A stretch of 64,000 bases of DNA from Dehalococcoidia bacterium (GTDB lineage Bacteria > Chloroflexota > Dehalococcoidia > UBA2979). This document shows positions 13,153 through 18,035 of the stretch, piece after piece. The notes beneath the pieces are model-generated. The model did not search any database. It was not told where the DNA came from and was given only the letters and a program-made list of their open reading frames with translations. A program made the translations under genes and the position numbers. Position 1 is the first letter of the stretch. The number at the start of each line of letters is the position of its first letter. The stretch covers positions 1,568,001 to 1,632,000 of the forward strand of contig CAXXDN010000002.1 of assembly GCA_963667465.2 (NCBI GenBank), given 5' to 3'.

Positions 13153-13383
13153 TGTGGGGGCTGCGCCCCCACACCCCATCCCGGACGAGCATGCGCAAGG
13201 CGATCCCGAAGATGCGAGGGATACCTCGCGGGGCCGCTCGAACCCACCCACCCGCCCTCGGATGTTCCTTCTGTCGGGGCTGTGCCCCCACGCCCCCCTC
13301 GGAACCAGCGAGGGCGCTCGCGACGTGCGAGGGCGAATCCGGTCCCCTCTCTCCCCGAGGGGGAGGGCGGGGGTGCGGGCGCT
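13153..13383 (-). repeat. Intergenic palindromic (REP/BIME-like) repeat cluster
   Basis: GTGGGGGCTGCGCCCCCAC hairpin; 13286-13383 is a reverse-complement homolog of 17939-18035. Confidence 0.75.
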
Positions 13384-14947: not shown

Positions 14948-15130
14948 CGTTCGAGGCGTCCTCGCCGGGGAGCGGCGTGCGCGCGCCCGATGCTACGTGC
15001 GTCGCGGCCCGCTTGCCACTGCGGAGCGCCGCCGAGCGCCGGGCCCTCACCCGTGAGGGGAGCGAGCCGGACCACCCTCGAGCGCTGCGCCTCGAGCGCC
15101 GCAACCGGCACGCGCGCGGGCTGCGGGCGA

Positions 15131-15212
15131 GCCCCCTCACCCCCCCTCTCCCGCCGGGGGAGAGGGGGCCGGACTTCCAACTCGCGCGTCGCGTGCGCCC
15201 CCACCCCGCCCT
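15131..15212 (+). repeat. CCCTCTCCC-GCCGG-GGGAGAGGG palindromic repeat array, left part (interrupted by IS110)
   Basis: One full unit 15131-15197, then the start of a second unit broken at the IS110 core. Confidence 0.85.
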
Positions 15213-15214
15213 AA

Positions 15215-15455
15215 TGGGGTTCGACCGGACCCTGGAGCGATCTGGGAGACTGGTCTTGGACCGGCCGGCCGGTGAGCACTGCCCCTCCCCGAGACACTGC
15301 GATCTCCAGGGAGAGACCGTGCCCCGGCTGGTGCGTCCGGGTGGTCCACAGCACTCCTGGGGTGTCGTGCCCGAGAGCACTGGTCCATTAGGCCGTCGCA
15401 GGACCAGCCCGGCAGGTCGCAAACAGCAGCACGAAGCGCAGGAAAGCGAGGCACG
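15215..15455 (+). ncRNA. Putative IS110 bridge RNA
   Basis: Internal loops contain CCTGGGGTGTC (15356-15366, equals right end) and CCATTAG (15385-15391, revcomp of left end CTAATGG); target loop CCCCTCCCC / GGGAGAG. Confidence 0.8.
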
Positions 15456-16679
15456 ATGACCCTCTACGTCGGTGACGACTGGTCCGAAGACCACCACGAT
15501 GTCCAGCTCATGAACGAGGCCGGCGAACGGCTCGCCGCCAGGCGGCTGCCCGAGGGCGTCGCGGGCGTCGCCGTGCTGCACGAACTGGTTGCCGAGCACG
15601 CCTCAGACCCGGGCGCGGTCGTGGTCGGCATCGAGACCGACCGCGGACCCTGGGTCACGGCCCTGCTCGCGGCCGGCTACCGCGTCTACGCGATCAACCC
15701 CCGCTCGGCGGCGCGCTACCGTGAGCGTCACCACCTGGGCGGCGCCAAGTCCGACGCCGCCGACGCGAAGCTGCTCGCCGACCTCGTGCGCACCGACCGC
15801 CACAACCACCGTCCGCTGGCCGGCGACAGCGACGAGGCTGCCGCGGTGCGCATCCTCGCCCGCGCCCACCAGCAGCTGATCTGGGACCGCGTGCGCCAGA
15901 CCAACCGGCTGCGCAACGCCCTCAGGGAGTATTTCCCGGCTGCCCTGCAGGCCTTCCCCAGCCTCGCGCACGGCGACGCCCTGGGCGTGCTGGCGCGGGC
16001 GAGCGAGCCGCGCGAGGCGGCGCGCCTGAGCACGTCGAAGATCCGCTCGGCGCTGCGCCGCGGCGGACGTCAGCGCAACCTCGAGCGGCGCGCCGCCGCG
16101 GTGCGCGACGCGCTGCGCTCCCCGCAACTCGAGGCGCCGCCTGCCGTGAGCCGGGCGTTCGCCGCGAGCACCCGCGCGGCGGTCGCGCAGATCAGCGAGA
16201 TCAACCGTCAGCTTACGGAGCTCGAGGCCGCGCTCACGAGCCATTTTGAGCAGCACCCGGACGCCGCAATCTACCGTTCCCTGCCCGGTCTCGGTGTCGT
16301 GCTCGGCGCCCGGGTGCTCGGCGAGTTCGGGGACGACCCCGAACGCTACGAGTCGGCGAAGTCCCGCAGGAACTACGCCGGCACCTCGCCGCTCACCGTA
16401 GCATCGGGCCGCAAGCGCAGCGTGCGCGCCCGCTTCGTGCGCAACCGCCGGCTCGCCGACGCCGTGGACCGCTGGGCGCTCTGCTCGCTGCAGGCGAGCC
16501 CCGGCTGCCATGACTTCTACCACCGCCGCCGCGCCGCGGGCGACCTCCACCACCAGGCGCTGCGCGCTCTCGGCAACCGCCTCGTCGGCTACCTCCACGG
16601 CTGCCTGAAGGCACGTCGCCCCTACGACGAGGCCACCGCCTGGGCGCACCGCCACGACCGCGAACAGCTCGCCGCTTGA
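15456..16679 (+). CDS. IS110 family recombinase (DEDD)
   Basis: YVGDDW, GIE, INP, KSDAADA, SLPGLG, AGTSP...SG, ALRALGNRL. Confidence 0.97.
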   Translation: MTLYVGDDWSEDHHDVQLMNEAGERLAARRLPEGVAGVAVLHELVAEHASDPGAVVVGIETDRGPWVTALLAAGYRVYAINPRSAARYRERHHLGGAKSDAADAKLLADLVRTDRHNHRPLAGDSDEAAAVRILARAHQQLIWDRVRQTNRLRNALREYFPAALQAFPSLAHGDALGVLARASEPREAARLSTSKIRSALRRGGRQRNLERRAAAVRDALRSPQLEAPPAVSRAFAASTRAAVAQISEINRQLTELEAALTSHFEQHPDAAIYRSLPGLGVVLGARVLGEFGDDPERYESAKSRRNYAGTSPLTVASGRKRSVRARFVRNRRLADAVDRWALCSLQASPGCHDFYHRRRAAGDLHHQALRALGNRLVGYLHGCLKARRPYDEATAWAHRHDREQLAA

Positions 16680-16713
16680 CGCCTTAGCACCCTGGGGTGT
16701 CTAACCCGCCGGG

Positions 16714-17896
16714 GAGACCTTTGCGTAATGCCGCCGCGAGGGGCAAAGTGCGGGGGCGGGGGCGAAGCAGCGTGGGGAGTGGCGCCATGCATCGGCGAAC
16801 CGGTCAGCGGTCGCTCGCGGAGGGGTGGATCCCCGAGGAGCTCGGACGCAACGATACCCTCGAGCGGATCGGCGCCGCGCTGGACTGGGAGCGCATCGGG
16901 GCGGTCGTCGACGGGGTGCATGCCGCGCCCCGGGGCAGGCCCGCGTACCCGCCGCTGACGATGCTCAAGGTAATGCTCCTGCAGCAGTGGTACGCGGCCT
17001 CTGACCCGGCGATCGAGGAGGCGCTGCGCGACCGCATCTCGTTCCGCAGGTTCGCCGGCCTGGGCTGGGACGACGGCACACCCGACCACTCGACGATCAG
17101 CCGCTTCCGCAAGCAACTCAGCAGGCACGGCCTCGCGGAGCGCGTGTTCGCCGAGCTGGGCCGTCAACTGGAAGAGCGGGGGCTGCTGGTCAAGCAGGGG
17201 ACGCTGGTCGACGCCACCATCATCGAGGCACAGGCGCGGCGGCCGCCGCTGGGGCGAGGCCCGGGCGCGAGCAGCGAGACCGACCCCGACGCGGCCTGGA
17301 CGCGCAAGGGCGGCGCGGCGCACTTCGGCTACAAGGCGCACATCGGGATGGACGCCGGCTCCGGGCTGATCCGGCAGGCGCTGCTGACGCCGGCGAACGT
17401 GAACGACACGGAGCCGGCGGACCGTCTGCTGGCCGGCGATGAGGCGGCCGTCTACGCCGACAAGGCGTACGACACGAAGGCGCGGCGCGCGCGGCTGAAG
17501 TCGCGGGGGGTCAAGGACCGGATCATGCACCGCCCGAACAAGCACCACCCGGAGCTGCCGCGCTGGCGGCGGCGGCGCAACGCGCTGATCTCGCGCGTGC
17601 GCGCGCCGGTCGAGCAGGTCTTCGGGACGCTGAAGCGCAGCTACGGCTACCGCCGGGTGCGCTACATGGGGCTGGAACCGAACGCAACCGAGCTATGGCT
17701 GAAGTGCACGGCCTACAACCTGAAACGGGCGGTCCGTCTGCCCCCCGCCTGAGGCCTGTCCCGGGGCGGAGTGCGCCCCGGGCACGGTCTGAGGCCTCCG
17801 CCGCGCCCCGCCCCAGGCCGCCAACGGCCCTCGCAGGGCCGCCCGTCGCCCCGGCTTCCCCGGATCTGCCGATTTCGCCAGTTACGCAAGGGTCCC
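16714..17896 (+). mobile_element. IS5-family insertion sequence
   Basis: Terminal inverted repeats GAGACCTTTGCGTAA / TTACGCAAGGGTCCC (13 of 15 match); flanking duplication GCCGGG at 16708-16713 and 17897-17902. Confidence 0.9.
16787..17752 (+). CDS. IS5 family DDE transposase
   Basis: GRPAYP, PDHSTISRFR, VDATII, FGYKAH, YADKAY, RAPVEQVFGTLK. Confidence 0.96.
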   Translation: MHRRTGQRSLAEGWIPEELGRNDTLERIGAALDWERIGAVVDGVHAAPRGRPAYPPLTMLKVMLLQQWYAASDPAIEEALRDRISFRRFAGLGWDDGTPDHSTISRFRKQLSRHGLAERVFAELGRQLEERGLLVKQGTLVDATIIEAQARRPPLGRGPGASSETDPDAAWTRKGGAAHFGYKAHIGMDAGSGLIRQALLTPANVNDTEPADRLLAGDEAAVYADKAYDTKARRARLKSRGVKDRIMHRPNKHHPELPRWRRRRNALISRVRAPVEQVFGTLKRSYGYRRVRYMGLEPNATELWLKCTAYNLKRAVRLPPA

Positions 17897-18035
17897 GCCG
17901 GGGGAGAGGGGGCCGGCCTTCCAACTCGCAAGTCGCGTGCGCCCTCACCCCCCGCCCTCTCCCGCCGGGGGAGAGGGGCCGGATCCGCCCTCGCGCGTCG
18001 CGTGCGCCCTCGATGGTTCCGAGGGGGCGTGGGGG
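17897..18035 (+). repeat. Palindromic repeat array, right part
   Basis: Resumes GCCGGGGGAGAGGGG; further full unit at about 17941-18005. Confidence 0.85.

Follow-up and report, generated by a model that had tools for sequence, protein, structure and literature searches.

Positions 15211-16702 of the window (the whole 64-kb stretch of DNA that was analysed) hold a 1,492-bp IS110-family element with a CT core at both junctions, and with high confidence, judging from its sequence and that of its relatives, this is an intact IS110-group element, very probably recently active, that carries an IS621-type bridge-RNA-guided recombinase system. The element consists of a 243-nt left end (15213-15455), a 407-aa DEDD/Tnp recombinase and a right end of 23 bp, core included, after the stop codon. 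The comparisons below support the view that the left end codes for a bridge RNA with two loops, predicted to match both the joined ends of the element itself and host palindromic repeats of one class.

A BLAST search of the genome with the element returned ten full copies, 99.9-100% identical and all sharing positions 1-1492, as well as one further partial copy at a contig end. Across the ten full copies the reading frames are intact and the left ends identical, and CT is present at both junctions of every copy with no further target duplication. Terminal inverted repeats are absent, as the ends read CTAATGG... and ...GGGGTGTCT. The first-pass annotation had delimited the element as 15211-16704; alignment of the ten copies retains this start and moves the end to 16702, the longer reading having arisen from a 4-bp CTAA repeat which, within this genome, is peculiar to the window copy. 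Among the assembled contigs of four runs, none joined 16702 back to 15213 and none bridged the empty form of the window site; contigs drop rare forms, and this absence therefore says nothing about circles or excision. Among public runs, none of RNA was found to contain the sequence.

All ten copies were mapped to the equivalent position of one REP-like palindromic repeat, ...CCCCNCC-CT-CTCCC...GGGAGAGG, a short imperfect palindrome that exists in many copies and whose units are clustered and in tandem near the window. The earlier proposal that this host repeat is the target was thereby borne out, with none of the ten insertions in unrelated sequence. The right flank is CTCCC in nine copies and AACCC in the window copy. 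Genome-wide, 192 hairpins combine a CT-CTCCC left arm with a GGGAGAG-like right arm, and nine of them are element junctions, leaving 183 unoccupied repeats with the common right arm. The left flanks of 8/10 occupied sites match the left target guide at six or more of seven positions, compared with 37 of the 183 unoccupied repeats (Fisher p = 1.6e-4), and the three commonest other left-flank classes hold no insertion among 61 repeats (CGGCCCC 33, CGATCCC 16 and CGGCTCC 12). The guide U faces G in 40/42 strict empty sites, and a base other than G is found opposite it in 3/8 occupied versus 1/37 empty sites (p = 0.014). Three candidate empty sites had been suggested nearby: that at 17957 matches at the seven flank positions bar the variable one and that at 15146 at six of seven, whereas that at 13349 was dropped, as only its right half fits and its left half matches at 3/7. 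The coordinates of all features are summarized in Table 1.

Table 1. Features of the IS110-group element and its surroundings, in window coordinates; RNA features are predictions.
Feature	Positions	Strand	Basis or remark
Unoccupied near-match REP-like unit upstream, CT at 15146-15147	15130-15175	+	ccctcacccccc-CT-ctcccgccggggg; left flank 6/7 guide positions
Left target half (LT) of occupied unit, ...CCACCCCGCC	15196-15210	+	register as in nine other copies (CCCCNCC before CT)
Left CT core	15211-15212	+	10/10 copies start CTAATGGGG and finish GGGGTGTCT
Right donor half (RD) AATGGGG; with core CTAATGG	15213-15219	+	left-end positions 2-8 invariant in 37 orthologous left ends
5' stem-loop of predicted bridge RNA, helix 15223-15227/15251-15255	15223-15255	+	5 pairs, 96.2% of cells paired, 1 compensatory
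Target-binding loop module, outer stem 15264-15279/15319-15332	15264-15332	+	14 pairs, 98.3% paired, 5 changed on both sides
Left target guide CCCCUCC plus two core-binding positions (CC), CCCCTCCCC in DNA	15282-15290	+	hypervariable in orthologues, tracks left flanks
Hairpin in target loop, GAGA/UCUC	15291-15306	+	4 pairs, 3 compensatory, 99.3% paired
Right target guide GGGAG plus AG (core-binding)	15309-15315	+	reverse complement of CT-CTCCC
Candidate target-loop handshake guide AC	15316-15317	+	complementary to last two left-donor bases GT
Donor-binding loop module, stems 15338-40/15409-11, 15345-47/15401-03 and 15351-54/15395-99	15338-15411	+	10 pairs, 5 compensatory
Left donor guide CCUGGGGUGU plus C	15356-15366	+	identical to right-end terminus 16691-16701
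Hairpin in donor loop, GUGC/GCAC	15367-15380	+	4 pairs, never vary
Right donor guide CCAUUAG	15385-15391	+	reverse complement of CTAATGG
Candidate donor-loop handshake guide	15392-15393	+	first base G pairs with last left-target base C
Recombinase gene, 407 aa	15456-16679	+	PF01548 6.9e-38; PF02371 7.1e-11
-35-like TTGACG overlapping stop codon TGA (16677-16679)	16676-16681	+	CTTGAC at constant distance from end in 30/31 right-end types
Left donor half (LD), CCTGGGGTGT	16691-16700	+	copy alignment; motif count
Right CT core and element end	16701-16702	+	10/10 copies align over 1-1492
Right target side of occupied repeat, window copy, AACCCGCCGGG	16703-16713	+	atypical; nine others CTCCC
IS5-like element, DDE transposase 16787-17749; bounds approximate	16714-17895	+	PF01609 3.3e-32; PF05598 9.5e-27
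Unoccupied full-match target, next repeat unit, CT at 17957-17958	17940-17975	+	repeat comparison

Adjoining the window copy is an IS5-like element with inverted repeats at 16706-16728 and 17882-17904, which lies outside the IS110 element. It was considered as the true target of the IS110 copy and rejected, since it is single-copy in the genome, lies within the loop of the occupied unit, flanked by its own 9-bp direct repeat (CCGCCGGGG), and is absent beside the nine other copies.

How one repeat class could be singled out is suggested by the left end. Every guide motif named in the first-pass annotation was found at its claimed position, and both right guides end in AG, as expected for a CT core. 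The assignment of guides to targets follows the strand rule of IS621, where, according to the available text of PMC11208160, left guides carry top-strand sense and right guides are the complement of that strand; it also agrees with guide-flank covariation across orthologues. Here the left target guide reads like the top strand of the left target. Its fit had been called imperfect, and so it is, although the register can be set: CCCC-U-CC plus CC stands against CCCC-N-CC-CT, with U opposite the variable N and with C, not U, as the second core-binding base. The alternative register, in which the last C falls on the first core base, was rejected because most orthologous guides end in CU aligned with the core. 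CTCTCCC, with which the right target guide would pair, is a common heptamer (13 found versus 16.7 expected in the 64-kb window), hence this match alone is not significant; what lends it weight is the sequence flanking the other copies, together with the orthologues. Among 37 distinct left ends of orthologues the target-loop guides differ, and they do so in step with the flanks of the element concerned; at least four nucleotides directly after the core match the right guide in 41/46 distinct guide/flank combinations. In a permutation test over 21 distinct guide pairs, right-flank match runs summed to 90 (22.6 when permuted) and left-flank matches to 105 (57.6 when permuted), neither sum being reached in 10,000 permutations; four loci with flanks cut by contig ends (L098, L099, L101 and L102) were left out. 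Poor left-side fits were seen at L068 (1/7 in the fixed register) and at one L080 site (2/7).

The donor loop is linked in the same manner to the ends of the element itself. The string CCTGGGGTGTC occurs twice in the 64-kb window, once in the right end and once in the donor loop, against an expectation of 0.02, and none of 100 shuffled sequences reached two. CTAATGG likewise occurs twice, in the left end on the forward strand and in the donor loop on the reverse strand; with 0.99 expected this is not significant window-wide, and the pair is notable only because of where its copies lie. Six of the seven positions of the right donor guide (CAUUAG) are invariant in 37/37 left ends, and at least 90% retain its first C; in actinobacterial orthologues the left donor guide and the right end co-vary, TGGGATGT being found in both. 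The candidate handshake base of the donor loop can pair with the last left-target base at 77/77 loci, with G-C in 72, C-G in three and G-T in two. In the target loop the corresponding A stands opposite T at 74/74 loci with a right end found, and as this pair never varies it is consistent with the model and no more.

The orthologue set comprised 80 loci, of which three gave no left end (L090, whose 5' part is absent, and L027 and L033, whose left ends are truncated) and L083, L097 and L103 gave no matched right end. A consensus structure of 41 pairs leaves 97.6% of cells paired across the 37 distinct left ends, compared with 25-42% when partners are slid, and shows compensatory change in 15 pairs (3-9 when slid) and 78 cells (4-16 when slid); the alignment used for scoring was also the one from which the structure had been built. 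Such compensatory changes in the stems point to selection on the RNA fold. The guides are not buried, as the consensus places them in two internal loops between stems with compensatory change; the pairs of the donor-loop hairpin, being invariant, are uninformative either way. The minimum-energy fold of the single sequence instead pairs the C-rich left with the G-rich right target guide, at -97.1 kcal/mol versus -43.5 kcal/mol for the consensus structure on this sequence, and is not better than that of shuffled sequences (z = -0.48). For this G+C-rich left end the single-sequence fold was judged uninformative and the comparative structure was used. A search of the sequence against Rfam gave no bridge-RNA family at E up to 1. 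The sole Rfam match over threshold was Ms_AS-4, antisense within the recombinase gene.

The recombinase has the two domains listed in Table 1, and its PF01548 match spans positions 1-155 of the 155-position profile. A PDB search with the single sequence found no match, whereas a profile of 11 orthologues (L091 and L104 were excluded from the protein alignment owing to translation errors) matched IS621 (8wt6, 9.9e-11) and ISCro4 (9t56, 3.7e-11). Residues D8, E60, D100, D103, S317 and G318 are invariant among the 11 orthologues. The catalytic aspartates of IS621 have D8, D100 and D103 as their aligned counterparts, the numbering of the chain being, as we infer, 2 off from the published D11, D102 and D105, and S317-G318 aligns with the catalytic Ser-Gly of IS621 and ISCro4. 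E60 was assigned by its I-E motif, as the HMMER alignment is shifted there by two residues.

A promoter formed only when the ends are joined had also been proposed, and the sequence across the joined ends does read TTGACG-N18-TCTAAT, with TTGACG at 16676-16681, then 18 nt, then TCT at 16700-16702 followed by AAT at 15213-15215. Conservation of the -35-like part is confounded by the stop codon and that of the -10-like part by donor recognition. Sigma-70 -10 boxes nearly always have A at position 2. The junction hexamer TCTAAT has C in place of this A and would thus fail the rule of our own promoter scan, which in the integrated element found no promoter-like and no terminator-like site.

Taken in order, the proposed cycle would begin with release of the element as a circle, or with its ends otherwise joined, which would bring the right-end -35 TTGACG 18 nt upstream of the -10-like TCTAAT spanning the CT core. 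Transcription into the left end may then yield an RNA of about 200 nt with a 5' stem-loop, a target-binding loop and a donor-binding loop, presumably bound by the 407-aa DEDD/Ser recombinase. The left donor guide, which repeats the right-end terminus and the first core base in the same sense, would pair with the bottom strand, and the right donor guide with CT plus AATGG at the left-end terminus. The target guides, one with the sense of CCCCNCC plus C and the other complementary to CT plus CTCCC, would jointly specify one subclass of the REP-like repeat. The recombinase would finally catalyse strand exchange at the CT core, giving the junctions LT-CT-RD and LD-CT-RT without further duplication.

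The window copy departs from this scheme at its right junction, where AACCC places two mismatches to the right target guide beside the core. We considered a pre-existing CT-AACCC repeat as its target and rejected it, since a search of this genome found no such repeat unoccupied and none at all except the occupied site itself. The AA of the CT-AA junction is the dinucleotide with which the element's own left end begins, and a CT-AA-CCC right junction is found, independently, in two related genomes (L025 and L026). It is conceivable, though we consider it rather unlikely, that in this clade the exchanged region at times reaches two bases beyond the core on its right side, with the heteroduplex repaired toward the donor, or that the left target half alone directs a half-match insertion. 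If either reading were true, natural junction variants would read out the geometry of strand exchange in an uncharacterised branch of bridge recombinases.

That every target is a hairpin-forming repeat could also mean that the recombinase reads the repeat by protein-DNA or hairpin contacts alone, with the left end, which lies directly 5' of the ribosome-binding site and start codon, acting as a regulatory leader for transposase expression; the available text of a preprint on ISPpu10 (10.64898/2026.03.19.712850) does describe a target stem-loop that adds specificity beyond base pairing. We regard this as extremely unlikely, for orthologues with different target loops sit in different flanks, each fitting the guides of its own element and many not being repeats (for instance at L050, L070, L081, L093 and L096), the match of guides to flanks was never equalled by permutation, and in this genome repeats sharing the hairpin arm with other left flanks remain unused (0 of 61). 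The internal copies of the end sequences might instead be DNA-level subterminal binding sites of the recombinase, and the donor-loop segments have the typical look of such sites, one being a direct repeat of the right end and the other an inverted repeat of the left end. Hardly any weight can be given to this idea, which leaves unexplained the target-matching segments, their covariation with the flanks and the compensatory stem changes around them.

Another question is whether the element still moves. A past burst, with all copies now fixed and the bridge-RNA anatomy complete yet immobile, would agree with the altered right target of the window copy and with the contigs of the four runs, which hold neither a circle junction nor a polymorphic empty site; rare circles, though, would be invisible in contigs, and ten copies of 99.9-100% identity with intact frames and identical left ends argue for recent spread. 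We thus think it very unlikely that the element is immobile, and the preferred reading remains that of a recently active bridge-RNA system.

Among the closest known systems is IS621 of Escherichia coli, a member of the IS110 group. As far as the available text of PMC11208160 and PMC11208158 describes it, IS621 shares with the window element the same two Pfam domains, the DEDD and Ser-Gly residues, the CT core, a long left and a short right end, and an RNA, predicted in the window element, ordered as 5' stem-loop, target loop and donor loop; its promoter split over the joined ends has a candidate counterpart here. The likeness extends, within the same text, to left guides with top-strand sense, complementary right guides ending in AG, handshake positions (candidates in the window element) that follow the right guides immediately on the 3' side, and a REP element as natural target. 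The two differ in that the window recombinase has 407 aa and that of IS621 326 aa, the extra length lying between the two domains; in that the right target guide here is 5 nt plus core, compared with 2 nt plus core (a 4-nt guide) in the available account of IS621; and in an extra helix of the window element, 15259-62/15415-18, which encloses both loops. Pairing to both core strands is strongly preferred in IS621, according to the available text of PMC11208160, whereas the left guides of this clade do not conserve their second core-binding base, which in the target loop is U, A or C and in the donor loop G. ISPpu10 and ISPpu9 of Pseudomonas putida, in the sources as available, resemble the window element in being multi-copy in one genome with all insertions in one conserved intergenic palindrome. 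In the available text of the preprint, the stem-loop that adds specificity to ISPpu10 is a GC-rich 5' extension, whereas the target hairpin here lies 3' and overlaps the right target. Elements of the IS1111 group have the same recombinase family and also use guide RNAs; they are described in the available text of PMC11208160 as having long RNA-carrying right ends and subterminal inverted repeats of 7-17 bp. The left end of 243 nt and right end of 23 nt place the present element in the IS110 group and not in IS1111.

The element clearly adds a further instance of a mechanism already known, which it leaves unchanged, and its behaviour has already been described for IS621 and ISPpu10. Its value lies in showing natural bridge-RNA targeting with unusual clarity: one guide pair explains ten identical copies and a single genome supplies an internal negative control, the same hairpin arm with another left flank never being used. 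The relatives, at 67-92% protein identity, amount to a series reprogrammed by nature, with 21 guide pairs and with sister elements among them in which the left guide has moved to a different repeat subclass. This series is useful for working out how guides behave in a branch far removed from IS621, with its longer right target guide, relaxed second core position and 407-aa recombinase, and for choosing new recombinases to test. In biological terms, it illustrates a way for an insertion sequence to multiply within a small genome of about 3 Mb with its insertions falling in repeats and not in genes.

A BLAST search of the interval against its own genome (2.97 Mb, two contigs) recovered ten full copies of the IS110 element, 99.9-100% identical, together with one further, incomplete copy where a contig ends. 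The alignments all cover positions 1-1492, so the element spans 15211-16702; the start given in the first-pass annotation stands, and the end, placed there at 16704, is corrected. The element starts with CTAATGGGG and finishes with GGGGTGTCT, with CT at both junctions. Its only gene codes for a protein carrying both Pfam domains of IS110-family recombinases (DEDD_Tnp_IS110, 6.9e-38; Transposase_20, 7.1e-11). A single-sequence search of the PDB gave no match, and a profile built from an alignment of 11 orthologues matched the transposases of ISCro4 (3.7e-11) and IS621 (9.9e-11). In these profile alignments D8, D100 and D103 coincide with the catalytic aspartates and S317-G318 with the catalytic Ser-Gly described for IS621 (PMC11208158); E60 lies within an I-E motif where the HMMER alignment is shifted by two residues, and all six residues are invariant in 11/11 orthologues. 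An Rfam match to the actinobacterial sRNA Ms_AS-4 (16280-16361, minus strand; 65.1 bits, gathering score 50) falls within the gene's most conserved part in antisense orientation, and that family may simply have been built on an IS110-type transposase gene.

Features of the IS110 element (window positions) and copies of a second IS110-family element (contigs C1 and C2 of the same genome)
Feature	Position	Strand	Remarks
Left target guide CCCCTCC	15282-15288	+	reads as left flank CCCCNCC; followed by two core-binding positions
Right target guide GGGAGAG	15309-15315	+	reverse complement of CT+CTCCC, right flank in 9/10 copies
Left donor guide CCTGGGGTGTC	15356-15366	+	repeats right-end terminus plus first core base
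Right donor guide CCATTAG	15385-15391	+	reverse complement of CT+AATGG, left terminus
Recombinase	15456-16679	+	407 aa; sole open reading frame of the element region
Second IS110 element (L105-L107)	C1:222895-224409, C1:459327-460841, C2:26149-27663		

The element had been proposed to target the host palindromic repeat, and mapping the copies with their flanks bears this out: none lies in unrelated sequence, and all ten share one insertion point in the left arm of the REP-like repeat, reading ...CCCCCTCACCCC-N-CC / CT / element / CT / CTCCC..., with AACCC replacing the right flank CTCCC in the window copy. A genome census counted 192 hairpins whose left arm is CT-CTCCC, of which 9 are the element's own right junctions and 183 are unoccupied. 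Classed by the heptamer preceding the core, the unoccupied repeats comprise CCCCGCC (36), CGGCCCC (33), CGATCCC (16), CGGCTCC (12) and others, and the element occupies only CCCCNCC (8 copies), CCCAACC (1) and CGCCCCC (1). A match to the left guide at 6/7 or more positions is found in 8/10 occupied sites vs 37/183 empty ones (Fisher p = 1.6e-4), and none of the 61 repeats in the three large non-matching classes is occupied. Around the window copy the repeats form a tandem cluster (15130-15212 and 17893-17975, units of ~65 bp), and 63 bp of the left flank recur at 17894-17958 with 91% identity.

According to the strand rule of Durrant et al. (PMC11208160), left guides read as the top strand, since the bottom strand is their pairing partner; for right guides the partner is the top strand, and each guide includes the core. 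The donor-loop segments and the GTGC/GCAC hairpin between them are present as annotated, and the two segments match the element's own termini; CCTGGGGTGTC occurs only twice in 64 kb (0.02 expected). The complementarity of GGGAGAG to the repeat likewise holds. The left target guide was placed by comparative alignment: most relatives have CT as the last two bases of the segment, immediately ahead of the hairpin, vs CC in the window element. This register sets the guide's U opposite the variable position N (G in 5 occupied sites, A in 2, C in 2, T in 1), which accounts for the imperfect match already recognized at first pass. Under the stricter pattern CCCCNCC-CT-CTCCC there are 42 unoccupied sites, 40 of them with G at N. 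This position (-3) is G in 36/37 unoccupied CCCCNCC repeats vs non-G in 3/8 occupied, a contrast of small numbers (Fisher p = 0.014); the guide U would pair with a top-strand T target and wobble with C.

Species-representative genomes yielded 80 orthologous loci (handles with L) at 67-92% protein identity, by record title mostly Dehalococcoidia with some Acidimicrobiales, Actinomycetota, Smaragdicoccus and Mycobacterium. The guides of each element agree with the flanks of that element, for example on the right TCGTG (L050), ACAAC (L068), ACGT (L081), AGGCC (L091), ACCGC (L093), AGACG (L096) and AACCT (L104), and on the left CAACAAC (L081) exactly and several others if U-G wobble is allowed. 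At least four bases match directly after the core in 41/46 distinct guide/flank combinations. When each of the 21 guide pairs was represented once, right-flank runs summed to 90 (permutation mean 22.6) and left-flank matches to 105 (mean 57.6), and none of 10,000 permutations reached either value; these sums retain the misses, namely the window copy and L025/L026 (0) and L049 (1) on the right, and L068 (1/7) and one L080 site (2/7) on the left. The donor side covaries as well, actinobacterial elements carrying TGGGATGT in guide and right end alike. The base following the right donor guide pairs with the final left-target base in 77/77 loci (G-C 72, C-G 3, G-T 2), corresponding to the handshake guides described for IS621; the target-loop handshake position (A) faces an invariant T and is only consistent with this model. 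In two loci, L097 and L103, the left end is normal and its donor guide is of the usual type, and no matching right-end terminus was found within ~220 bases past the gene end; their right end may be longer or degraded.

Left ends were present in 77/80 loci, giving 37 distinct sequences with the window. Stems and donor loop are conserved among them, variability peaks in the columns of the two target-guide segments, and the terminal AG of the right target guide is invariant. On the question whether the guides are buried in stems, RNAalifold, with pairing barred only in the first 12 columns (CT+RD, the right donor half, and bases to the presumed start), gave two internal loops in which the target guides, and the donor guides for the most part, stay unpaired. 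The minimum-energy fold of the single left end did not favor open loops. A structure with all four guides forced unpaired, differing from that consensus by three donor-loop pairs only, gave 97.6% standard pairs in 1,515 cells vs 25-42% with partners slid by 1-3 columns, 15 pairs with compensatory change vs 3-9, and 78 such cells vs 4-16, values biased somewhat in its favor as it was scored on its own source alignment.

The right junction of the window copy (16701-16713) reads CT-AA-CCC vs CT-CT-CCC, leaving each end with a 4-bp CTAA; the junction recurs in L025 and L026, making three elements in three genomes. The census found no unoccupied CT-AACCC repeat in the window's genome, and the two bases that open the element's left end are likewise AA. 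One possible origin is heteroduplex repair next to the core. Hiraizumi et al. suggest repair of mismatched nucleotides once the bottom strands have been exchanged; on our reading of their numbering, the bottom strand in IS621 is cut to the left of the core, not to the right. Insertion guided by the left half alone is also possible, by analogy with the 'half-match' events reported for IS621 in a preprint.

As annotated, the joined ends carry TTGACG-18 nt-TCTAAT, a candidate promoter, and a promoter scan of the integrated element found no promoter-like site. CTTGAC stands at constant distance from the end in 30/31 right-end types; this conservation alone is no proof of a promoter, because the -35 shares bases with the stop codon and the -10, whose second position is not the usual A, doubles as the donor core region.

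Two other elements were seen. A single-copy IS5-like element (DDE_Tnp_1 and DUF772; approximately 16714-17895) lies within the loop of the same repeat unit as the window IS110 copy, with imperfect inverted repeats (16706-16728/17882-17904) and a flanking 9-bp direct repeat CCGCCGGGG. The second IS110-family element (~1,515 bp, three copies) is bordered by a C run at each junction, repeats its termini internally within the left end (GATGGGGACA and GTAAGG) and carries TTGAC close to the right end. It probably represents a further bridge-RNA element, one with a different, not repeat-specific target.

The window element thus appears to be a bridge-RNA-guided IS110 element, whose expression, circular form and activity are predicted. 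In anatomy and behavior it corresponds to IS621, down to the REP element that serves as natural target (PMC11208160), and likewise to ISPpu10 (preprint). It differs in its distant sequence, longer protein, longer right target guide, unconstrained second core-binding base of the left guides and extra enclosing helix; these differences are of degree, and the type of mechanism is already known. In related genomes, sister elements L028-L031 and L079 carry the left guide TGGCTCC and lie in CGGCTCC-type repeats, the 12-copy subclass left unoccupied in the window's genome, a joint switch of guide and repeat that amounts to natural retargeting.
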